Positions 32,473-49,436 are shown, numbered from the stretch's first letter. The stretch: DNA of 64,000 nt from an uncultured Gemmatimonadales bacterium (GCA_963798845.1 CAWCUS010000002.1:192001-256000); one strand, 5' to 3'. Notes: a model not told the origin generated them from the sequence alone. Made by a program: numbers and translations.

Positions 32473-34294
32473 CTACCCCGCCGCGGACCCGACGGTGGCG
32501 AACTGGAGCTCGTGCAGCCGGGCGTAGAGGCCGCCTCGGGCAAGGAGCTCGGCGTGGGTCCCGGTCTCGCGCAGCTCGCCGTGATGGAAGACCAGGATCC
32601 GGTCGGCGTTCTGGACCGTGGAGAGGCGGTGTGCGATGACCACGGAGGTGCGCCCCTGGAGGAGTGTCTCCAGCGCTTCCTGGATCTGCGCCTCGAGCTC
32701 GGAGTCCACGGAGCTGGTGGCTTCGTCCAGGATGAGGACGAGAGGGTCGAATGCCAGGGCGCGGGCGAACGAGAGCAGCTGGCGCTGGCCGACGCTCAGG
32801 CTGGCGCCGCGTTCGCCCAGCGCCTCGTCGTACCCGGCGGGCAGGCGCTCAATGTGGGGTTCGGCGCCCACCCGGGCGGCAGCCTCCCGGACCCGCTGGT
32901 CGTCGATGTCCTCGCGCCCGAGGCGGATGTTGTACTCCACGCTCTGGCTGAACAGGAACACGTCCTGGAGCACCAGCCCGATGCGCTCGCGCAGCGCCCG
33001 CAGGGAGACTTCCGTGATCGGCACTCCGTCGAACAGGATCTCGCCCTTCTGCGGCTCGTAGAAGCGCATGAGCAGGCTGATCGAGCGTGGTCTTGCCGGC
33101 CCCCGTGTGCCCGACCACGGCCAGCCGCTCGCCCGCGGAGACGTGGAAGGAGACGCCCTTCAGGACCCAGTCCCAGTCGCTCCCGTCCTCGGTGCGGGTG
33201 TAGGCGAACCAGACGTCCCGGAACTCGATCTCGCCGCGCCCGGGCTCCGGCATCGCCACCGGCTCCAGGGGATCGCGCACTTCCGGCTCGGTGTCCAGGA
33301 CGCGGAAGATGCGCTCGGACGAGGCCATGGCGCCCTGGAGCATGTTGTACTTCTCGGACAGGTCCTGGATCGGGCGGAAGAAGCGCCGGGCGTACATCAG
33401 GAACGCGGTCACCACGCCCACGGAAACGGTGCCTCCGACGAGCCGGCTGCCGCCGTACACCAGGATGAGCGCCAGCGCCAGCGTGGTCAGGACCTCGATG
33501 ACCGGGAAGAAGAGGGCGTAGTAGGTGATGCTTCGAAGGTGCGCCTCGAGGTGGTCCTGGTTGATCTCCCCGAAGCGGCGCACCGTATTCCGCTCCTGCC
33601 CGAAGAGCTGCACCACGCTCACGCCCGTGATCCGCTCCTGGAGGTAGGCGTTGATGCGCGCCAGGCGGACCCGGATGTCCCGGTACGCCTCCCGCACCTT
33701 CTTCCGGAACAGGAAGGCGACCAGGAACACCAGCGGCATCACGGCGAACGCCACCAGCGCCAGCTTCCAGTCCATCCACAGCATCACGCCCACGATGAAG
33801 ACGAGCGTGAAGATGTCGCCGAACACGGTGACGATGCCCGAGCTGAAGAGCTCGCTCAGCACCTCCACGTCGTTGACCACGCGGGTCATGAGCCGCCCGA
33901 CGGGGTTGCGGTCGAAGTAGCGGAGGCTCTGGCGCTGCAGGTGGCCGAACAGCTCGCCACGCAGGTCGAACATGATCTGCTGCCCCAGCCACGTGGTGAG
34001 GATCTGCTGCCCGTAGCCGAGCCCGAGCGTCAGGAAGAGGGTGGCGAAATACGCCAGGGCGAGGAGCCCGAGGTAATGCAGGTCGCCTTCGGGAATCGCG
34101 CGGTCCAGCGCCACTTTCGTCAGGTACGGCCCCGCCAGCTCCAGCGCTGCGATGATCAGCAGAATGGCCACACCGCCCACGACCGGCCAGCGGTACGGCT
34201 TCAGGTAGCGGAGCAGCCGCCGCATGAGGCGGGCGTCGTACGCCTTGCCGAACGCTTCTTCCTCGTGCAGCGGCGTGATGTCGGTCGCGGGCAT
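32473..34294 (-). CDS. ABC exporter (TMD+NBD), split by an apparent one-base insertion at about 33082
   Basis: Walker A GHTGAGKTT in one frame; LSVGQRQ, DEAT, AHRLST in the next; deleting one base gives GKTTLISLLMRFYE. Confidence 0.88.
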
Positions 34295-34463
34295 GCGCGG
34301 AAGGTAAGGGCGCACCGCCCCCGCCGGTACCCGGCCGCCCCGGCTTTCAGGGCCCGGTACCCGGCGCCCCGGCTGGCGCGCCCCGGGCGGTGCCCGCTAC
34401 CGTGGGGTGGTGGCGGCGGAAAGCCCCGCCGCCGTCGGTCACGACCCGCCACCCGCCTGCTCC

Positions 34464-37545: not shown

Positions 37546-37822
37546 AATCGGGAAACTGTGGTTCGGGCTCCGGTCGGGCCAGAGGGTGGGGAAGCAGGGT
37601 CGGGTGTGGCCTGTGCCGGGGCGCCGTGATGGCTTCTGGTCTGGTCGAGAACGGGTCGGGCCCACCGGCTGCGTCTGGGGGGATCAGTCGGCCCCGCCCG
37701 GGATCGAAGGAATCGAACCCACCTGGCAGGGGTAGCGGGTCACGGTGCAATGCCGTGGCCCGCTTCTGCATGGGGGCCGGTGGCGGAGCTCGTCGCACTT
37801 TATCCCCGTTCTGCGGGCGCAT

Positions 37823-38680
37823 ATGATGGTCCGCATGCGAAGCCGCCTCCGGGGTACCCGTTCTCTTTCCTTGACGCCCGTCCTCGCGCCTGTGATCGGG
37901 CTGGCCGTGCTTGCGGCCTCGTGCGGGCGAGCGCCGGTGCGGGGTGGGGGCTGGGTGGCGGCGGCGGAGGCAGTGCGTCCGACGGTGCACTCGGTGTGGG
38001 GGAGCCGACCGGTGGACGGGCTGGAGCGGACCGCGTTCGCCCCGCTGGGGAGCGCGTTCGCGTTGACGGCGAAGGGGCTGCTGCTGACGAACGCGCACGT
38101 GGTGGCGCCGGAGCGGGGCCTGGCGAGGCACCTCCGGGTGCTGGTGCAGGGGGACACGGGGGCGGTGTTCTACAATGGGGAGGTGCTGGCGATCGACGAG
38201 GGGAAGGACCTTGCGGTGGTCCGGATCGAGGCGGACGGCCTGCGGTACGCGCGCTGGACGGAGGAGGAGGCGCCGATCGGCACGCCGCTGGCCACGATCG
38301 GCTACGGGCTTCCGGAGGGCGGAGTGGTGGAGGCGAGCGATACGGACGTGGTTTCGCAGTACACCGTTTTCCGCCGGTTCACGGCCGGGTACAGCAGCGG
38401 CTATCGTACGCGGGTGGCAGGGGATCCTGGAACGAACGCGCTGGAGGCGGACCTGTTCCTCTTCCCCGGTGTGAGCGGGGGGCCGGCGTTCCGGGAGGAC
38501 GGGCGGGTGGTGGGTGTGGACCGTGGCCACCGCGAGTACCGGGAGGCTGCGTCGTCGTACGGCGTGATCATCCCGGCGAACGTGGTGAAGCTCTTCCTGG
38601 CGTCGGTGGCGGCGGAAACCGGCCTGGATCCCGACTCTGTGTTCGGCGCCGCGCCCGCCGGCGCAGCGGAGCGGCCGTGA
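37823..38680 (+). CDS. Trypsin-like (S1) serine protease, probable lipoprotein; start uncertain
   Basis: TNAHVV, DLAVV, PGVSGGP catalytic motifs; LAASC lipobox. Confidence 0.85.
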   Translation: MMVRMRSRLRGTRSLSLTPVLAPVIGLAVLAASCGRAPVRGGGWVAAAEAVRPTVHSVWGSRPVDGLERTAFAPLGSAFALTAKGLLLTNAHVVAPERGLARHLRVLVQGDTGAVFYNGEVLAIDEGKDLAVVRIEADGLRYARWTEEEAPIGTPLATIGYGLPEGGVVEASDTDVVSQYTVFRRFTAGYSSGYRTRVAGDPGTNALEADLFLFPGVSGGPAFREDGRVVGVDRGHREYREAASSYGVIIPANVVKLFLASVAAETGLDPDSVFGAAPAGAAERP

Positions 38681-40506
38681 AGGCCCGCGGGCGCTGCCGC
38701 CCTGCGACGGCAGTGCGGCTCTTCGCCGCCCTGGCCGTCACGGCGGTGTCGTGCGGACCCGGCGTCGCGTCGGCGCCCCGTCCGTCCGGCCCTCCGGGCG
38801 GCGGGGCCGCGGCGGGCGGGAGTGTGGCTGCCCCCGGCGTCGCCGCGAGGAGCGGTGAGGCGCCCGACCTCTACTTCCCTTCGCGCGACCTCGGGCCGCT
38901 CTTCCAGGACGTCCAGCTGTCAGGGATCTTCGCGGACTCGAAGACGTTCGTGGACGCCAGGCCGCGGGAAGCGCCAGGGGAGGTGGGGTCGCGCTACGTC
39001 GCCCTGCGGGCGGAGCCAGGGTTCGATCTCGAGGCTTTCGTCGAGCGCGAGTTCGAGCTCCCGGCGGCAGCGGGAGGCGAGTTCCGCACGGACACCTCCC
39101 GCACGATGGCGGAGCATATCCGCGCGCTCTGGCCGGTCCTCACTCGCCATGCCGACGAGCCCGACGCACGCTCCTCGCTGATCCCGCTGCCGGCGCCGTA
39201 CGTGGTGCCCGGCGGCCGCTTCCGCGAGGTGTACTACTGGGACTCGTACTTCACCATGATCGGGCTGGTGGAAAGCGGGTGCGTGGACCTGGTGGGGAGC
39301 ATGCTCGACAACTTCGCGTGGCTGGTCCGGACCTACGGTCACGTGCCGAACGGCAACCGGGCGTACTACCTGAGCCGCAGTCAGCCGCCCTTCCTCGCGG
39401 CCATGGTCGGGCTGTACGCGGCAACGGCCGACACCGCCAGCGCGCTCCGTTACCTCGACGCGCTGATCGCCGAGCACGGCTTCTGGATGGACGGCGCGGA
39501 CCGCGTTGCGCCCGGTGAAGCGTACCGGCGGGTGGTGCGGCTGTCGGACGGCTCCGTGCTGAACCGCTACTGGGACGAACGCGACGACCCCCGCCCGGAG
39601 TCGTTCCAGGCGGACTACCGGCTGGGGCAGACCCTTTCGTCCGCCGAGCGGCCGGCGTTCTACCGGAACATCCGCGCAACGGCCGAGAGCGGCTGGGACT
39701 TCTCCAGCCGGTGGATGCGCGACTCATCGGACCTGCGCACGCTGGAGACCACGGAGCTCGCGCCGATCGACCTCAACAGCCTGCTCTACCACCAGGAGCG
39801 GACGATCGCCGCGCTCCTCCGGTCCCGCGACGCGCCTGGCGACGCGGCCGCCGCCCACCGCTTCGACCAGGCCGCCGCCGAGCGTCGCCGGGACCTGCTC
39901 GCCGCCGCCTGGGACCCGGAACGCCGCTTCTTCTACGACGTCCGCTGGCGCACCGGCCAGCGCGTCACCGACCGTCCGACCCTCGCCGCCGCCGTCCCCC
40001 TCTTCTTCGGCGTGGCCTCTCCCGAGCAGGGCGGCGCCGTCGCCGACGTCCTCGCCCGCGACTTCCTACGCCCCGGCGGCTTCGTCACCACGCAGGTGGC
40101 GTCGGGGCAGCAGTGGGACGCGCCCAACGGCTGGCCGCCGCTGGAGTGGATGGCGATCGAGGGGGCGCGGCGATACGGCCGCGTCACGCTTGCGGACACC
40201 GCGGCCGCCCGCTGGCTGCGGCTCCTCCGTGACACGTTCCGGTCCACCGGCCGGATGACGGAGAAGTACGACGTGGTGGACCTGGCCCGCCGCGCTGGCG
40301 GCGGGGAGTATCCGACACAGGATGGCTTCGGCTGGACCAACGGGGTGGCGCTTGGACTCCTGGGGACGGGGGCCGCCGCCTCCGCGCCGGGCGGCCGTCG
40401 CCCACCATCATCTCCCGGCCGGGGGCGGGACGGACGCAGCGACGGGTCCGATGCCCGGCCACCGGCCCCGACACGGAGGGACCCATGCCCGCTCCGGCAC
40501 GAGTGA
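38677..40506 (+). CDS. Alpha,alpha-trehalase (GH37)
   Basis: DSKTFVD, PGGRFREVYYWDSY, SRSQPP, AESGWDFSSRW, QWDAPNGWPP, EKY, QDGFGWTNGV. Confidence 0.95.
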   Translation: MKARGRCRPATAVRLFAALAVTAVSCGPGVASAPRPSGPPGGGAAAGGSVAAPGVAARSGEAPDLYFPSRDLGPLFQDVQLSGIFADSKTFVDARPREAPGEVGSRYVALRAEPGFDLEAFVEREFELPAAAGGEFRTDTSRTMAEHIRALWPVLTRHADEPDARSSLIPLPAPYVVPGGRFREVYYWDSYFTMIGLVESGCVDLVGSMLDNFAWLVRTYGHVPNGNRAYYLSRSQPPFLAAMVGLYAATADTASALRYLDALIAEHGFWMDGADRVAPGEAYRRVVRLSDGSVLNRYWDERDDPRPESFQADYRLGQTLSSAERPAFYRNIRATAESGWDFSSRWMRDSSDLRTLETTELAPIDLNSLLYHQERTIAALLRSRDAPGDAAAAHRFDQAAAERRRDLLAAAWDPERRFFYDVRWRTGQRVTDRPTLAAAVPLFFGVASPEQGGAVADVLARDFLRPGGFVTTQVASGQQWDAPNGWPPLEWMAIEGARRYGRVTLADTAAARWLRLLRDTFRSTGRMTEKYDVVDLARRAGGGEYPTQDGFGWTNGVALGLLGTGAAASAPGGRRPPSSPGRGRDGRSDGSDARPPAPTRRDPCPLRHE

Positions 40507-42068
40507 AGTGGTGGGACGACGTCGTCAGCTCGGAGTCGGTGAAGCTCACCGACGAGGTTCACCTGCTGTGGGGAGACCGCGTGCGCGTGCTCCAGCATGA
40601 CGCCGCCGCGAAGCGCTCGCGCGTGTACGCCCGCGGCGCCATCGGCTGGATCGACGACCACCATCTCGGTGGTGACCCGCTCCTGGAGCTGTACTTCATC
40701 GACGTGGGGCAGGGCGACGGCATCCTGATCGTCACGCCCGAAGGGCACCACATCGTCATCGACGGCGGACTCCAGCGGTCGTATCAGCAGACGCGGAAGA
40801 GCGCGGCGGACTTCGTGGACTGGAAGTTCGCGAAGGACTACCTCGTGTGGGGGGAGCGGGACGATGCGGCGAAGAACGCGGTGCGCCTGGACGCCATGAT
40901 CGCGACCCACGCGGACCAGGACCACTATGGCGGGCTGCGCGACCTGATCGACCGGGACACGCCGGACTACCGCGAGGAGCTGGACGCCCTCAATGTCACC
41001 GTGGAGGCGTTCTACCACCCCGGTCTCTGTCCCCAGGAGGACGGGACCGACGCCCTCGGTGAGAAGGACGGCGGCTGCTTCGTCCGCCTCATGGAGGACC
41101 GGGCGTCGGTGGAGAAGAGCCTCGGCCCCGATCCGGGTGGTGCGCCCCGCCTGCGGGGCTACTGGCGTTCCTTCATCTCCGCCGTGGCCCGGCAGAAGCG
41201 CAGGGACGGACAGCCGACCACCATCCAGCGGCTGTCGCAGAGGACCGGCTTTCTCCCCGGCTTCGATGATGCCAGGCACGATTCGGCCGTGGCGATCCGC
41301 GTGCTCGCCCCGGTCGAGGAGGAGGTCGGCGGGACGCCGGGGCTGCGCGACCTGGGCGACGAGGCGCACAACAAGAACGGGCACTCGGTCGCCCTCAGGC
41401 TCGACTACGGCGAACGCCGCTTTCTCCTCACCGGCGACCTCAACGACAAGGCCCACGCGCTCATCATCGACAGCTATCCGGCGCTGGCGGCGTTCGAGGA
41501 CGACTGGCGCGCCGACGTCGCCAAGGCGTGCCACCACGGGAGCCACGAGGTGGACCGGCGCTTCCTCCAGGGCGTCCAGGCCCTCGCCACCATCTTCTCC
41601 AGCGGCGACGCCAACACGTACGACCACCCGCGCGCGTGGCCTCTCGGCGCCGCGGCCCTCTACGGCCGAGTCATCGAGGACGCGAGCCAGTTCCGCCTGA
41701 AGGCCCCGCTCATCTACTCCACCGAGGTCGCCCGCAGCATCTCCCTGTCCGGGATCGAGCAGCTGAGGCGCTACGACACGCCTCAGTCGTACGGCCGCGA
41801 GAGAGCCGAGCCGGCCGACCAGGTGTCCGGCGAGGTCACCATGAGCCGCTGGCGGGTCGTCCTGAACAGGGACAGCGCCGAGCCCCGCGACCTCCCGCCC
41901 GCGCCCGGCGTCCGCGTCATGCGCAGCCTGGTTTACGGGCTGGTGAACGTTCGATCCGACGGCAGGCGTCTCCTTTTCGCCGTGCGCAACGAGGGCAACT
42001 ACTCCTGGTCCACCGCCACCATGGAGGCCGAAGAGATCGACGGCGCGTTCCGCATGGTCAGACCGTGA
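40485..42068 (+). CDS. ComEC-like MBL-fold metallohydrolase with possible N-terminal SH3-like domain
   Basis: [46 protein letters not shown]. Confidence 0.8.
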
Positions 42069-44099: not shown

Positions 44100-44887
44100 G
44101 CGACCGGGCCGGAGCGAGCCCGCCGGGCCAGGCGAAACCCCCGGTGCTGGCTGCGCGCGCGGTGACGCGCCGCTTCGGCCGCGTGGTCGCGCTCGAGGAG
44201 GCCACCCTCGAGCTGCACGCCGGCCGCGTCACCTGCCTCCTCGGCGACAACGGCGCCGGAAAGAGCACGCTGATCAAGGTCCTGGCCGGCGTCCACCCGC
44301 CGACCGGGGGTACGGTCGAGGTGGATGGGAGGCCGATCACCCTCGGCTCGCCCCGCCACGCGCAGCGCCACGGCGTCGCCGTGGTCTACCAGGACCTGGC
44401 CGTGATCCCGCTCATGAGCGTCTGGCGCAACTTCTTCCTCGGCCGGGAGCCCACCGTGGGGCGCGGGCCGTTCCGCCGACTCGACGGCGCCGCGTGCCGC
44501 CGTGACACCCGGGTCGCGCTGGGCGCCTTCGGCATCCATATCGACGACGTCGACCGCCCGCTCGGCACCCTCTCTGGCGGCGAGCGCCAGTCGGTGGCCA
44601 TCGCCCGCGCCGTCCACGCTGGCGCCCGCGCCCTCATCCTGGATGAGCCCACCGCCGCGCTCGGGGTCCGGCAGGCCGCGCTCGTCCTCGGCCACATCCG
44701 CCGCGTCTGCGACGCCGGGGTCGCCGTGCTCCTGGTCACCCACAACCCCCGGCACGCGCTCGCGGTGGGCGATGCGTTCGTGGTCCTGCGCCACGGCCGT
44801 GTGGCGGCGGTCCTGGAGGCGAAGGAAGCCGGGGTCGACCGACTCAGCGAGCTCATGTCGGACAGCGCGGCGGGCTGGTCCGGCTGA
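44096..44887 (+). CDS. Sugar ABC transporter ATP-binding protein
   Basis: [20 protein letters not shown]. Confidence 0.92.
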
Positions 44888-45107
44888 GGCCGACGGCCGG
44901 AACGCGCCCGCGCCGCCCGCCGCCAAGACTCTTGCCCCGCCGGTGCGTCCCGATCCATCGTGCACCGTCGCATCGCATTTCCGCACGGGCCACCTCTGAT
45001 CCGGGCCCGAGGCGACGACCTTCGCGTGCCGCCGCGCGACCCCGGACTGCCCGCGATGTCCCGGTCAGGCGTCCGTTCCACCCGCTGCAGGGCCACTGGA
45101 GACTGCC

Positions 45108-45659
45108 ATGTTCAACAATCCCGGCCCGTTCACGTTCGGTCCCACGTCCACGTCGCAGCTCGAGACGCTTCACCCGGATCTGCGCCGGGTCCTCGAGCGG
45201 GCCATAGAGGTCTTCGACTTCAGCGTGGTCGAGGGGCGGCGCACCATCGAGACCCAGATCGGCAATCTTCGGCGAGGCGTTTCGAAGACCATCGACAGCC
45301 GCCACATCCCTCGCGACGAGGATGGCGTCTACCAGCCCACCGGCCTGGGTGAGGCGGCCGACCTGACGCCGTACCAGAAGGGCGTCAATCCGTGGCCCCA
45401 GCCCGGCGACACCCGGGTGACCGCCGAGAAGAAGGCGCGTCGCTTCTACTTCATGCAGGGGGTCCTCTACGCAATCGCGCGCCAGGAAGGCGTGGACATA
45501 CGGCTCGGCGTGGACTGGGACACCGATCTCGACTTCTTCGACCAGTCCTTCGACGACCTCGGCCACGTGGAGCTCCGGACCGCCCGGGCGGCCCTGAAGA
45601 TCCCGGAGGATCTGAAAGAGGACGTGGAGGCGGTGCTGGGAACACTGGTTCCGGCTTGA
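45108..45659 (+). CDS. M15 family peptidoglycan peptidase (T5 endolysin-like L-Ala-D-Glu type)
   Basis: F.FG..S..QL.TLHPDL, DFSVVEGRRT, SRH...AAD, DIRLGVDW, DLGHVEL; RBS GGAG. Confidence 0.85.
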   Translation: MFNNPGPFTFGPTSTSQLETLHPDLRRVLERAIEVFDFSVVEGRRTIETQIGNLRRGVSKTIDSRHIPRDEDGVYQPTGLGEAADLTPYQKGVNPWPQPGDTRVTAEKKARRFYFMQGVLYAIARQEGVDIRLGVDWDTDLDFFDQSFDDLGHVELRTARAALKIPEDLKEDVEAVLGTLVPA

Positions 45660-45678
45660 GAAACCACCATCCGGCGAG

Positions 45679-48600
45679 GTGATGATGATGGATGAGCGAC
45701 AGTTCATCGCGCGTGTCGAGGCCGCGGACCCGGAGGAGTACGCGCGCCTCCTGGCGCACCCGAGCAAGGACGAGGAAGCGGCGCTGCGAACGCACCTGGG
45801 CGATGGCCGATACGAGCGGCAGCACGAGCTCGCCGCTCGCGGCGAGACCCGGGGCCGCGCGGAAAAGCGGGGCAACCTGGTGGTGATCCACGGCATCATG
45901 GGCGGCGAGCTGACTGCGTACGACCGCAGCGCGGACGCGGACCGGGTGTGGGTTCACCTCCCGCGACTCATCGCCGGCGGCATCGATCGGATCTGGCTCG
46001 CCGATGATGGCCTGGCTTCCCGCGACGCGCGCTGGGATGTCCGCGCCACCGGGATCATGAAGCGCAGCTACGGCGAGCAGATCCTCCGCCTCTCCCAGGA
46101 ATGGAACGTCCGCGCCTACTGGTACGACTGGCGCAAGGACCTGCGCAAGGCGGCCGACCTGCTCGCCGCTTCCCTGGACAACTGGTTCGGGCCGGACGAG
46201 CCCGTTCACCTCGTGGCGCATTCCATGGGAGGCCTCGTCTCGCGCTCGTTCATCCAGCGCCACGGCGACCGCTGGAAGCGCATGTGGGATGATGCAGGCG
46301 ATGGTCGCGCCGGCGGCCGCCTGATCATGCTCGGCACGCCCAATCACGGCTCCTTTGCGGTCCCCCAGATCGTCACCGGGCTGGAGGGCATGGTGCGGAA
46401 GCTGGCCATGGTGGACGTGCGTCACAAGCTGCCCGAGATCCTCCAGGTGATCCTGTCGTTCCCCGGATCCTACCAGATGCTCCCGTCACCCTTCGTGCTT
46501 CCCGACATGGAGCCGCTCTATCGCTCCGAAACCTGGGGCGTGTCCCGGCGGGTGCCGCAGCAGCACCTGACCGATGCCCGCGCGTTCCACACCGAGCTGC
46601 GGCCGGTGGTGGACCCCGCCCGGATGGTGTACGTGGCGGGATACAATCGCCGGACTTTCTGCGAGGTCCGGGATCTGAAGCTCGCGGAGGCCGACGCCTA
46701 CGTGGCGACACTCGAAGGCGACGGGCGGGTCCCCCACTCGCTCGGGCTCCTCGACGGGGTGGACACCTACTACGTCGACGAGGTCCACGGCAGCCTGCCG
46801 GGCAACGGCTCCGTGCTCGCGGCCATGACCGACCTGCTGGAAACGGGCAGGACGGAAGCCCTGCCGGCGAAGATGCCGCGCGGGCGGTCGGTGCGTTCCG
46901 CGGCGGCGCTGCGCGAGGCGCACGCGCGTGACGTGGCCCGGAACGCCAGGGACGAGGACGCGCTAGAGCTTTACGTCCGGCACGAGCAGGTGCGGGGGGA
47001 GGCCGCGGCGGAGCGACAGCTGTTGAGCGGCGAGGAGCGCAGGATGGAGGAGATCGTGCTCCGCGGCTGGCTCTACGGAGAGGAGGAGGAGCGCGCCGCT
47101 CCGGCGGCGGACGCGGAGATCGTCGTCGCCGCCACGGGCAGGCCCGTGACCGTGACCCTGGCGGTGCAGCTGGTCGCCGGCGACATCGAGCGGGCGGATG
47201 AGCTGATGGCCGAGCCTCCCGACGCCATCGCCGTCGGCCATTACGTGGGCGTCCGCCCCCAGTTCGCCGAGCGCGCCCTGGACATCGCCGTCACGCGGGC
47301 GCTGCGCGGGCTCGGCCCGGACACGACCATCGCCGATCCGGACCTCCTGCTCACCGGGTTCACCGAGCGCGGCACGATCCGGGGGGAGCTCGGGCAGCCC
47401 TTCCTCCTCCCCGATCCGCGGCGCCCGGGACGGGTCGTCGCCATCGCCGGGATGGGCCTGCCGGGACGGTTCGGCTCGCCCGAGCTCAGCGTCCTCGCCC
47501 GTGAGCTGGCCTGGAGCCTCGGGCAGCTCGGCAAGAACCACCTCGCCACGGTCCTGATCGGCGCCGGCGCCGGGAACCTGGACACCGAAGAAGCGCTGGG
47601 TGCCTGGATGCGCGGTCTTCAGCACGCCATTGCCGCCTCCGCTGACGCAGATCACGGCGCCCACATCTCGCGGATCACCTTCGTGGAGCGGGACCCGCAG
47701 CGCGTCATGGACCTCGACCGGGCGATCCGCGACCAGGATCGCTGGTTCGAGCGTGCGGGGGGCATGGACATCGTCTACCAGCCGCTCGCGGAAGCGCGCC
47801 TCCGGCAGCTGGAGGCGCAGGCGCTGGAGCAGCGCGTCGCGAGGGCGAGGGCTGAGCGAACGTCGGAGCCGGCGCCCGAGCCGACCCGCGTGACGCTGGG
47901 CTTCGATCGCCGGGAGAAGCGCCGGGGCGTCTACCGCTTCGGTGCCCTCACGCGCTCCGCGTCGGTTCCCGAGCGCGAGGTGCCGCTGGACCCGACGCTG
48001 GTGGACGAAGCCAACGACGGGCTCCCGGGGATGGACCGGATCGCGGACCAGATCCGGCGCGGCAAGTACCTGGAGCGACTCCTCGTGCCGCGCGATCTCC
48101 GCGAGGCCATGGCGACGAACGCTCCTCTGGTCATGCTCCTCGACTCGGCCACCGCCCGCATCCACTGGGAGATGGTGGCCCAGCCCGACGTCGTCCCTCC
48201 CGACGCCGACGACGTCGAGGGCTGCTTCCTCGGCACCAGCCGCGGTTTCACCCGTCAGCTCCGGACCACCTTCGCGGCCGTTCCCGAGGCCCCACCGCCT
48301 CCGCGCCGGCCACTCCGCGTCCTGATCGTGGCCGACCCCGCGGAGGACGCACGGCTGCCCGGCGCGCTGCGCGAAGGCTACGAGATCCAGGAGCTGTTCC
48401 AGCGCTTCAACCAGGTCTTCGAAAGCCCCCTCCGGAGCGTCGAGGTGCGGTCGCTGCTCGGCCCCGGCGAGGCGACGCGCACCGCCGTCCTCGACGAGCT
48501 CTTCAGTCGACAGTACGACGTTCTCCACTTCGCCGGCCACTGCGCCTATGAGGAGGACGATCCCGCCTCGTCGGGGTGGATCTTCGGCGATGGCGCGCGG

Positions 48601-49059
48601 CTCAGCGCCAACGAGCTCCGGCGCGTGGACCACATCCCGAAGTTCGTCTTCTCCAACGCCTGCGAATCCGGAATCACGCCGGACCGCTCCGAGAAGCGCG
48701 ACGCCGCCCTCGCGCCGTCCTTCGCAGAAGCGTTCTTCGAGCGCGGCGTGGCGAACTTCGTCTGCACCGCCTGGCCCGTGGACGACGCCGCCGCCCTCGG
48801 GTTCGCGGCGCACCTCTACTCCGCTCTCCTCGGACTCCCCGCCCCCGAGGCGGGAGCCGACCCCCGTGACCCCCAGCCGATGCACGAGGCGATGAAGGAG
48901 GCGCGCGTGGCAGTCGCCCGCATGGGCACAGGTCGCCGGTCGTGGGGCGCCTATCAGCACTACGGCAACCCGAACTTCCGCTTCTTCGAGGCGTCGCCGC
49001 TCCGGTCGCCGGCTCAGCGCGCAGCCGCGGGAACCCGCTCACGGAGCCGGAAGCGATGA
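45679..49059 (+). CDS. Multidomain protein: LCAT/PGAP1-like lipase + macro-like domain + CHAT (caspase-like) protease
   Basis: IHGIMG, YDWR, AHSMGG, LGTPNHGS, GDGRVP, HGSL; GDI...ATVLIGAGAG...ITFVE; HFAGH, FSNACESG, AYQHYG. Confidence 0.85.
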   Translation: MMMMDERQFIARVEAADPEEYARLLAHPSKDEEAALRTHLGDGRYERQHELAARGETRGRAEKRGNLVVIHGIMGGELTAYDRSADADRVWVHLPRLIAGGIDRIWLADDGLASRDARWDVRATGIMKRSYGEQILRLSQEWNVRAYWYDWRKDLRKAADLLAASLDNWFGPDEPVHLVAHSMGGLVSRSFIQRHGDRWKRMWDDAGDGRAGGRLIMLGTPNHGSFAVPQIVTGLEGMVRKLAMVDVRHKLPEILQVILSFPGSYQMLPSPFVLPDMEPLYRSETWGVSRRVPQQHLTDARAFHTELRPVVDPARMVYVAGYNRRTFCEVRDLKLAEADAYVATLEGDGRVPHSLGLLDGVDTYYVDEVHGSLPGNGSVLAAMTDLLETGRTEALPAKMPRGRSVRSAAALREAHARDVARNARDEDALELYVRHEQVRGEAAAERQLLSGEERRMEEIVLRGWLYGEEEERAAPAADAEIVVAATGRPVTVTLAVQLVAGDIERADELMAEPPDAIAVGHYVGVRPQFAERALDIAVTRALRGLGPDTTIADPDLLLTGFTERGTIRGELGQPFLLPDPRRPGRVVAIAGMGLPGRFGSPELSVLARELAWSLGQLGKNHLATVLIGAGAGNLDTEEALGAWMRGLQHAIAASADADHGAHISRITFVERDPQRVMDLDRAIRDQDRWFERAGGMDIVYQPLAEARLRQLEAQALEQRVARARAERTSEPAPEPTRVTLGFDRREKRRGVYRFGALTRSASVPEREVPLDPTLVDEANDGLPGMDRIADQIRRGKYLERLLVPRDLREAMATNAPLVMLLDSATARIHWEMVAQPDVVPPDADDVEGCFLGTSRGFTRQLRTTFAAVPEAPPPPRRPLRVLIVADPAEDARLPGALREGYEIQELFQRFNQVFESPLRSVEVRSLLGPGEATRTAVLDELFSRQYDVLHFAGHCAYEEDDPASSGWIFGDGARLSANELRRVDHIPKFVFSNACESGITPDRSEKRDAALAPSFAEAFFERGVANFVCTAWPVDDAAALGFAAHLYSALLGLPAPEAGADPRDPQPMHEAMKEARVAVARMGTGRRSWGAYQHYGNPNFRFFEASPLRSPAQRAAAGTRSRSRKR

Positions 49060-49229
49060 GCGGCGGATCGCACGGAAGGCGGCCGAACCCGGAGCTCGAC
49101 CACGGCCCCTGACCCGCCCCGGGACGGTCGGGACAGGGCCTTTCGCGTCGTGCCACTCGTCGGAGCGGGCGGCCCGAAACATGCGTTTGTTCAGCGCGAA
49201 CCCACACACCGACATGGGGAGGTGCACGC

Positions 49230-49436
49230 ATGGATCGCGAACACGAACGCGAAGTGAGGCGCAAGGGCGCGGAGCACGAGACGGAAGGCGCCGTGCGGGA
49301 GGGCGAGGGGAAGGTCGAGAAGGAGCTTGGCCGGATCACGAAGGACCGCTCCAAGGAAGCCGAGGGTGCGGCGAAGGAAGCCGCCGGCAAGGTCCAGAAG
49401 AAGGCGGGAGAAGCGGCCCGGAAGGCTGCGGAGTGA
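49230..49436 (+). CDS. CsbD-like general stress protein
   Basis: EG...EGKV....G..T.D...EAEG......GKVQKKAG pattern; RBS GGAGGT. Confidence 0.8.
   Translation: MDREHEREVRRKGAEHETEGAVREGEGKVEKELGRITKDRSKEAEGAAKEAAGKVQKKAGEAARKAAE

Follow-up and report, generated by a model that had tools for sequence, protein, structure and literature searches.

According to a passage in Kaur et al. 2020 (PMC7159879), caspase domains in conflict systems always have an alpha/beta-hydrolase gene at their side, and an excerpt of the 2025 preprint by Evans et al. (PMC12642450) describes an alpha/beta-hydrolase zymogen (LcHydrolase) that a caspase-like protease (LcCaspase) cuts at two sites, with cell death as the outcome. 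Here we analyse a two-gene locus at positions 45108-49059 of a 64,000-nucleotide (nt) stretch of DNA from an uncultured Gemmatimonadales bacterium (CAWCUS010000002.1:192001-256000; hereafter, the window). By its sequence, gene 1 encodes a phage-type M15C endolysin, and gene 2 a protein in which a lipase-like hydrolase, a macro-fold domain and a CHAT protease share one chain. By analogy with the published pairs, gene 2 reads as a single-chain form of a caspase plus alpha/beta-hydrolase 'protease-gated death effector'. We give a probability of roughly 50% to the combined account, in which gene 2 is a cytoplasmic, protease-gated phospholipase that acts as a conflict effector and gene 1 an endolysin recruited as its accessory executioner; within this account, we are far more confident of how gene 2 is classified than of any coupling of the two genes.

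Proteins of the lipase / macro-like / CHAT type form a very large family across many phyla and would represent a fused, widespread form of a known protease-hydrolase death switch. Our literature search found neither experimental work on this family nor a specific description of it.

Architecture and family of the lipase-CHAT protein

Pfam assigned LCAT to residues 142-234 of gene 2 (26.8 bits against a cut-off of 21) and CHAT to residues 795-1097 (98.3 bits against a cut-off of 24; 7e-28). Both active sites, reported as intact in the initial annotation, held up in an alignment of 26 sequences: H181-S182-G184-G185 (the HSMGG motif), G347-D348-G349 (the Asp of GDG) and H370 of the serine hydrolase, as well as H950 and H954 (HFAGH) and N993-A994-C995 (NAC) of the CHAT His/Cys dyad, are invariant in all 26. 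A sequence search of the Protein Data Bank (PDB) returned nothing for gene 2 at E ≤ 0.01. Foldseek comparison of the modelled N-terminal domain returned the lysosomal phospholipase A2 LPLA2 (4x92; E = 5.5e-9, template-modelling (TM) score 0.62 by target length), together with LCAT and Tle4 (4r1d, 1e-6), a phospholipase effector of the type VI secretion system. The C-terminal part gave Csx29/TPR-CHAT as its best match (2e-9), with DdvA, separase and SAVED-CHAT also found. DUF7379 matches to the hydrolase were weak (17 bits against a cut-off of 33). Judged from sequence and model, the hydrolase domain is a phospholipase or acyltransferase of the LCAT/LPLA2 type, with a lipid as its predicted substrate.

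The initial annotation had called the region between the two enzymes a macro domain. This region is strongly conserved in the 26-sequence alignment and confidently modelled (predicted local confidence (pLDDT) of 90.1 for residues 488-790). Foldseek ranked the M17 N-domain of PepA (1gyt, 3.9e-8) on top, followed by macroH2A, Af1521 and MacroD; true macro domains (macroH2A, Af1521, MacroD1/2) matched with a probability of 1.00 and TM scores by target of 0.55-0.74. A profile of the domain recovered the PepA N-domain 3jru from the PDB (E = 0.013), and the Atlas placed it in the Peptidase_M17_N cluster (0.89). Pfam Macro had no match in gene 2, and the usual ADP-ribose-binding motifs were not seen in the domain. 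As far as the model goes, the macro label is right at the level of the fold, with M17 aminopeptidase N-domains closer, and membership of the ADP-ribose-binding family is unsupported.

The full-length model reached a pLDDT of 79.7 and a predicted TM score of 0.49, leaving the packing of the domains uncertain. The linker at residues 406-489 is poorly conserved in the same alignment and, with its modelled disordered stretch (469-489), is a candidate site of proteolytic release. A hidden Markov model of the N-terminal 62 residues found the gene itself only, among 3303 open reading frames (ORFs) from 81 loci; a homotypic adaptor shared with the neighbours was thus set aside.

Gene 2 belongs to a family of 933 proteins at E ≤ 0.001. 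In the best 120 of these, query coverage was at least 97%, with 48-63% identity, and the fusion is conserved; the macro-like region alone comprised 755 representative clusters at 50% identity. Relatives of gene 2 in viral contigs (IMG/VR) numbered zero. In other members, Metallophos or nSTAND1 takes the place of the lipase on the macro-like/CHAT core, a C-terminal PLDc_2, Peptidase_S8, trypsin or PD40 propeller is added, or the protein is shortened to ~600-730 residues and bears no N-terminal effector (variant architectures include P0298, P0319, P0344, P0376, P0386, P0400, P0433, P0434 and L070:3851-8239). Such swapping of effectors on a macro-CHAT core is a modular signature of conflict systems.

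To survey the neighbourhoods, we combined ORF clustering with Pfam scans of the flanks of 80 gene 2 homologue loci, which by their record titles come from about ten phyla or groups (Acidobacteriota, Chloroflexota, Actinomycetota, Verrucomicrobiota, Planctomycetota, Myxococcota, Gemmatimonadota, Binatia, Armatimonadota and Proteobacteria). SIR2_2 genes, usually immediately downstream, were Pfam-confirmed at 16 loci and reached 20 with clustering; nSTAND1(-WD40) genes, following SIR2_2, were confirmed at five (19 with clustering), and Peptidase_C14 caspases, directly up- or downstream, at eight (13 with clustering). A second CHAT, a second LCAT, cyclase-RyR, GT4-conflict, CYTH, RES and Macro genes occurred as isolated neighbours, and most loci had no recurrent partner at all. 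The neighbours that do recur are conflict-system genes.

One arrangement stood out in Pyrinomonadaceae and Verrucomicrobiota, where the lipase-macro-CHAT gene is followed by a ~316-aa (amino acid) SIR2_2 gene and then by an nSTAND1(-WD40 or TPR) NTPase gene; loci with the SIR2_2/nSTAND1 order include L015, L024, L028, L031, L043, L050, L061, L063, L065, L067, L077 and L080. This looks like a three-gene system. That an NAD-derived product of the SIR2 protein might serve as ligand of the macro-like domain is offered as an idea only.

Features of the locus and predicted domains of gene 2 (window coordinates)
Feature	Position	Strand	Size or residues	Basis or remark
Gene 1, M15C endopeptidase (predicted)	45108..45659	+	183 aa	ORF call, PHROG/PDB matches, alignment
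Gene 2, lipase / macro-fold / CHAT protein	45679..49059	+	1126 aa	ORF call, Pfam, Foldseek, alignment
N-terminal four-helix bundle (modelled)	45679..45858	+	1-60	Model secondary structure; invariant E6, E14, L36, R37, G41
LCAT/lysosomal-PLA2-like alpha/beta-hydrolase (predicted)	45859..46893	+	61-405	Pfam LCAT, triad S182/D348/H370, Foldseek
Charged helical linker, then disordered stretch (469-489, pLDDT <50)	46894..47145	+	406-489	Low conservation, model confidence
Macro-fold domain, M17 leucine-aminopeptidase N-terminal type, then long helix (modelled)	47146..47853	+	490-725	Model, Foldseek, profile, Atlas
Beta-rich pre-domain and CHAT protease (predicted)	47881..48993	+	735-1105	Pfam CHAT, HFAGH (H950, H954), NAC (C995), Foldseek
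Upstream non-coding gap	44888..45107		220 nt	Shine-Dalgarno-like GGAG 6 nt before gene 1 ATG
Intergenic spacer	45660..45678		19 nt	Shine-Dalgarno-like GGCGAGG just before GTG/ATG starts of gene 2
Downstream non-coding gap	49060..49229		170 nt	CsbD gene starts at 49230

A phage-type endolysin gene and its setting

Gene 1 had no Pfam match, even at E = 10. It matched PHROG 465, 'endolysin' (4e-28), and, in the PDB, the L-alanyl-D-glutamate peptidase of phage T5 (2mxz, 5.5e-11), 8q2g (3e-8) and Serratia ChiX (5opz, 5e-6). The M15 zinc-peptidase motifs (SRH, D and DxxH) noted at the outset are borne out by an alignment of 37 sequences, with D63, D85, D150 and H153 invariant and S64 and H66 at least 90% conserved; by analogy with EndoT5, we take the His-Asp-His residues to be the zinc ligands and the Asp of DxxH to be catalytic. 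From these matches, gene 1 is an M15C L-Ala-D-Glu endopeptidase of the phage endolysin (EndoT5/ChiX) type, and its muralytic activity is predicted.

The subfamily is small, counting 57 matches to proteins of 180-190 aa; its members have an insertion that separates the His from the Asp zinc ligand and are extended by ~25 aa at the C-terminus. Relatives in viral contigs share 49-58% identity with gene 1; IMG/VR held 60 loci, five of them at 49-54%. Some (L105, L109, L104, L108) adjoin GTA_holin_3TM holins, an SU10 adaptor or tail-fibre genes. In sequenced phages, 1071 records matched, the best at 38% identity. An M15 profile matched three of the 401 genomes of a phylum sample, this genome included. 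These viral and phage matches mark gene 1 as a phage-type endolysin stranded in a chromosome, in keeping with its initial description as an orphan of the T5 type.

As an observation in its own right, the ~185-aa M15C subfamily lies beside GTA_holin_3TM holins in two viral contigs (L105:1115-2086 and L109:5995-7553). Escaping detection by any Pfam M15 model, this long subfamily is probably under-annotated as endolysin.

The co-orientation of the two genes, their 19-nt spacing and the gaps on either side were confirmed as first drawn. GC content at third codon positions (GC3; 0.87 in gene 1, 0.90 in gene 2) is typical for a genome of ~72% GC. No terminator-like or sigma-70-like sites were found between 44700 and 49500; because the spacer is too short for a terminator or a promoter, we infer co-transcription, and the genes likely form one transcription unit. 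A search of sequencing runs for the locus listed two DNA metagenome runs, holding 0.19-0.25 of its sequence words, and no RNA run.

Neither protein showed a hydrophobic N-terminus or a transmembrane segment, the single flagged hydrophobicity window being borderline and lying at residue 481 of gene 2; the absence of signal peptides claimed beforehand is thereby upheld. The flanking genes are housekeeping ones, with a sugar ABC transporter upstream and CsbD, PanE and a UvrA-like gene downstream. Pfam scans of GC3-supported ORFs throughout the window returned only housekeeping families and, as had been claimed, no holin, integrase, virion or spanin family, although short Pfam-less holins or spanins could escape such scans. 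An immunity or secretion-system gene was not found in the window either. A KDO transferase and a TonB C-terminal domain in the window point to a diderm cell.

Weighing the coupling of the two genes

Synteny with G001, a genome of the same genus, shows genes 1 and 2 as a single ~4.3-kb indel between an ABC ATPase gene and CsbD. DNA homology stops at 44799, placing the left edge between ~44800 and 45120, and resumes inside the M15 coding region; the right edge lies at ~49168. No meaningful direct repeats flank the indel, the sole 14-nt exact pair lying inside coding regions. G001 carries its own M15 gene at a different spot, between trypsin-like and trehalase genes, as the last gene of a tight cluster, and DNA similarity between the two M15 copies does not extend beyond the coding region. 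The endolysin thus adjoins a lipase-type gene in both genomes of the genus, a patatin in G001 and the LCAT-type lipase here. Neither a SIR2_2 domain nor a homologue of the G001 patatin was found in the present genome (G000).

The G001 cluster (L097:9426-12629, minus strand) comprises a patatin-like phospholipase (551 aa, with a trace of DUF3376), a 282-aa protein and the M15 gene, whose product has a different C-terminus, running into the trehalase start. The 282-aa protein has no PDB or Pfam match; homologues were present in seven other genomes of the 401, none with patatin or M15 within ~1.5 kb.

Wall hydrolases of other types also lie near gene 2 homologues. A PG_binding_1 plus GH19 protein is encoded 151 nt upstream of the homologue in L053, an M23 protein 83 nt downstream in L007 and an M23 plus SH3 protein 91 nt downstream in L072; the M23 subfamily of the latter recurs in L039 in a different gene order, two genes upstream and after a caspase gene. 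All four lack a hydrophobic N-terminus and are encoded in surroundings without phage-like features. In P0036, P0040, P0048 and P0056, LysM and SLT are fused to the N-terminus, the position held here by gene 1.

The GH19 protein of L053 (2420-3850, plus strand) ends in a Lys/Ala-rich tail of ~150 residues, resembling the polycationic tails that help some lysins to cross membranes. Just upstream of this GH19 / lipase-CHAT pair lies a pair of DUF3037 and HipA_2 kinase genes (L053:750-1965, minus strand), which may be another toxin-type module of the same island.

Several results weigh against a functional coupling of genes 1 and 2, and, as a conserved module joining the lipase-CHAT fusion to a peptidoglycan hydrolase, the initial proposal largely falls by the refuting condition stated at the outset, that fusion homologues lack linkage to cell-wall hydrolases. 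Reciprocal tblastn surveys found an M15 gene in 0 of the 80 gene 2 homologue loci (E ≤ 1e-3) and, across 80 metagenomic M15 loci, neither the gene 2 fusion (0/80) nor the patatin or 282-aa protein of G001 (0/80). Among 40 relatives, gene 1 occurs in one only, G001 (70% identity), where gene 2 is missing; G013 (64%) and G022 (53%) both carry gene 2 at full length and are devoid of gene 1, and a weak CHAT-only match in G017 carries none of our claims. Downstream of the two closest accessible M15 homologues (L102 and L103, 74% identity), the fusion is absent. The pairing is therefore not conserved and, among what was searched, is unique to this genome. The four LysM-SLT fusions form one clade and count as one evolutionary event. 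As a within-locus control, we compared adjacent co-oriented ORFs within ~310 nt (n = 61, plus four scanned separately; opposite-strand and distant neighbours excluded) with a random 130 drawn from 228 ORFs of the same loci that are non-adjacent and 150-600 aa long. Peptidoglycan-hydrolase domains were present in 3/61 adjacent and 3/130 non-adjacent ORFs (Fisher p = 0.39), the latter being the M23 gene of L039 and opposite-strand GH25 genes in L075 and L081; with L039 counted as linked, the figures became 4/62 and 2/129 (p = 0.09). Enrichment of peptidoglycan hydrolases next to gene 2 homologues was not shown by this control. On the side of gene 2, a sensor role of the macro-like domain is a guess, given the missing Macro match and ADP-ribose-binding motifs, and the likeness claimed for its hydrolase and LcHydrolase is one at the alpha/beta-hydrolase level.

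These numbers agree with coincidental adjacency, with gene 2 a self-sufficient effector, as it would be in most genomes, and gene 1 an orphan unrelated to it that was left by a prophage or domesticated independently and lies in a variable chromosomal spot. The independent distribution of the two genes among relatives, the lack of a recurrent partner at most gene 2 homologue loci and the control all fit this reading, as does the variability of the region, in which three places set the two genomes of the genus apart (the MBL gene described below, the patatin trio and the gene 1-gene 2 pair). It accounts less readily for two same-strand genes 19 nt apart that form one indel, for an M15 gene adjoining a lipase-type gene in both genomes, for the recurrence beside homologues of signal-less peptidoglycan hydrolases from three further families, along with one fusion clade, and for the lack of any other phage remnant in the window. 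We regard it as quite possible, if somewhat short of probable. A predicted complex of gene 1 with residues 488-1126 of gene 2 scored 0.00, which speaks neither for nor against binding.

Export offers another way to link the genes: the M15 enzyme would open the murein locally, in the manner of ChiX in the holin/endopeptidase secretion pathway of Serratia, and let a signal-less lipase-CHAT toxin leave the cell against competitors. The ChiX match of gene 1, the resemblance of the lipase domain to Tle4 and the absence of signal peptides agree with such a module. We nonetheless consider it highly improbable, because the window revealed no holin, immunity or secretion-system gene, the gene 2 family partners intracellular conflict genes (SIR2_2, nSTAND1-WD40, caspases), and a secreted lipase has no evident use for CHAT and macro-like domains. 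Even less credence attaches to gene 1 as a housekeeping cytoplasmic peptidase of murein-peptide recycling that is unrelated to conflict. Its predicted cytoplasmic location and the name 'CwlK' that some sources give to its relatives would suit recycling; its rarity (one of 40 relatives and three of the 401 phylum-sample genomes, this one counted), nearest kin in viral contigs beside holins and the 1071 matching phage records would not.

Under the combined account of effector and recruited endolysin, a trigger would switch on the CHAT protease; the macro-like domain or oligomerisation might do the sensing, as might, in other genomes, the neighbouring SIR2/STAND genes. The protease would then cut the linker or linkers, either in its own chain or in a sister chain, and release the phospholipase, which would attack the inner membrane and kill the cell, in abortive infection or another programmed suicide. 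Gene 1, without a signal peptide, needs a membrane lesion to gain access to murein; probably a lineage-specific recruit, it would do no harm in the cytoplasm as long as the membrane is intact and, once the lipase has breached it, would cleave L-Ala-D-Glu bonds, turning membrane damage into lysis. The triggered lysis cassette of the initial annotation survives in part: the identities of the genes, their likely co-transcription, conflict-gene neighbours and a protease-unleashes-hydrolase logic matching the passages in PMC7159879 and PMC12642450 speak for it, and a conserved link to wall hydrolases does not. Whether phospholipase plus signal-less wall hydrolase is a recurrent holin-free, protease-gated two-hit lysis design, assembled repeatedly (with M15 here, patatin and M15 in G001, and GH19, M23 or LysM-SLT elsewhere), strikes us as doubtful.

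Elsewhere in the window, a 527-aa MBL-fold protein (40485-42068, plus strand), whose gene is an insertion relative to G001, weakly matched the defence-system models LmuA, RTasMBL, Avs1a and 6A-MBL as well as the ComEC C-terminal region. A trypsin-like peptidase gene (37745-38680, plus strand) lies 1.8 kb upstream of it, with a trehalase gene in between. Since protease-linked MBL nucleases are a defence effector class according to an excerpt of PMC12642450, the window may contain, in the MBL-fold gene, a second gene of conflict type. An ABC exporter (ABC_membrane plus ABC_tran; 32473-34315, minus strand) is spread over two overlapping ORFs that each hold part of the ATPase domain, possibly reflecting a frameshift, a pseudogene or a sequencing error.

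Comparison with described systems

Gene 1 resembles EndoT5 (2mxz) and ChiX in sequence, zinc ligands, catalytic Asp and the lack of a signal peptide. It differs from them in length (183 aa versus ~137 aa), through its insertion and C-terminal extension, in going undetected by Pfam M15 and in residing on a chromosome where no phage genes were found. With the holin-endolysin-spanin cassette of phages, the locus would share a cytoplasmic endolysin awaiting a membrane lesion; unlike in that cassette, no holin or spanin was found here, and the lesion would be enzymatic, inflicted by a lipase under protease control. If the endolysin does cooperate, the locus would exemplify an immune or suicide system of bacteria in which a lysis enzyme is borrowed from phages and an enzyme stands in for the holin. 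Controlled lysis would then have a new route, one that synthetic biology could use. If the endolysin does not cooperate, the locus holds an ordinary orphan endolysin beside an interesting, independent conflict gene.

For gene 2, Craspase (the type III-E gRAMP with TPR-CHAT/Csx29), SAVED-CHAT and Borvo (BovA) provide precedents of a CHAT protease as a switchable executor in defence. Gene 2 differs from these in having no CRISPR, SAVED or TPR part and in carrying a lipase effector on the same chain. PADLOC matched gene 2 to BovA alone and partially, in the CHAT part (28.4 bits; model positions 515-649 of 711, 135 positions); for want of a full-length match, we did not assign it to BovA.

The patatin CapV of the cyclic-oligonucleotide-based anti-phage signalling system CBASS is a phospholipase effector of abortive infection. 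The predicted killing step of gene 2 is likewise degradation of the cell's own membrane phospholipids. Its hydrolase, however, is LCAT-like rather than a patatin, and its gating would be proteolytic instead of relying on a cyclic nucleotide; it is the M15 gene of G001 that does pair with a patatin.

The closest likeness remains that to the caspase plus alpha/beta-hydrolase pairs, which join a protease of the caspase superfamily to a lipase-like hydrolase in conflict neighbourhoods with STAND NTPases. In the logic published for those pairs, a latent hydrolase becomes a killer once it is cleaved; for gene 2, we infer such cleavage. Unlike the pairs, gene 2 fuses both activities into a single chain with the macro-fold domain between them, its protease is of the CHAT type and its hydrolase LCAT/LPLA2-like, and an endolysin gene is attached. 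With the protease and the hydrolase of a cleavage-gated death switch on one chain, it would be a compact model for how such a switch is held off and fired.

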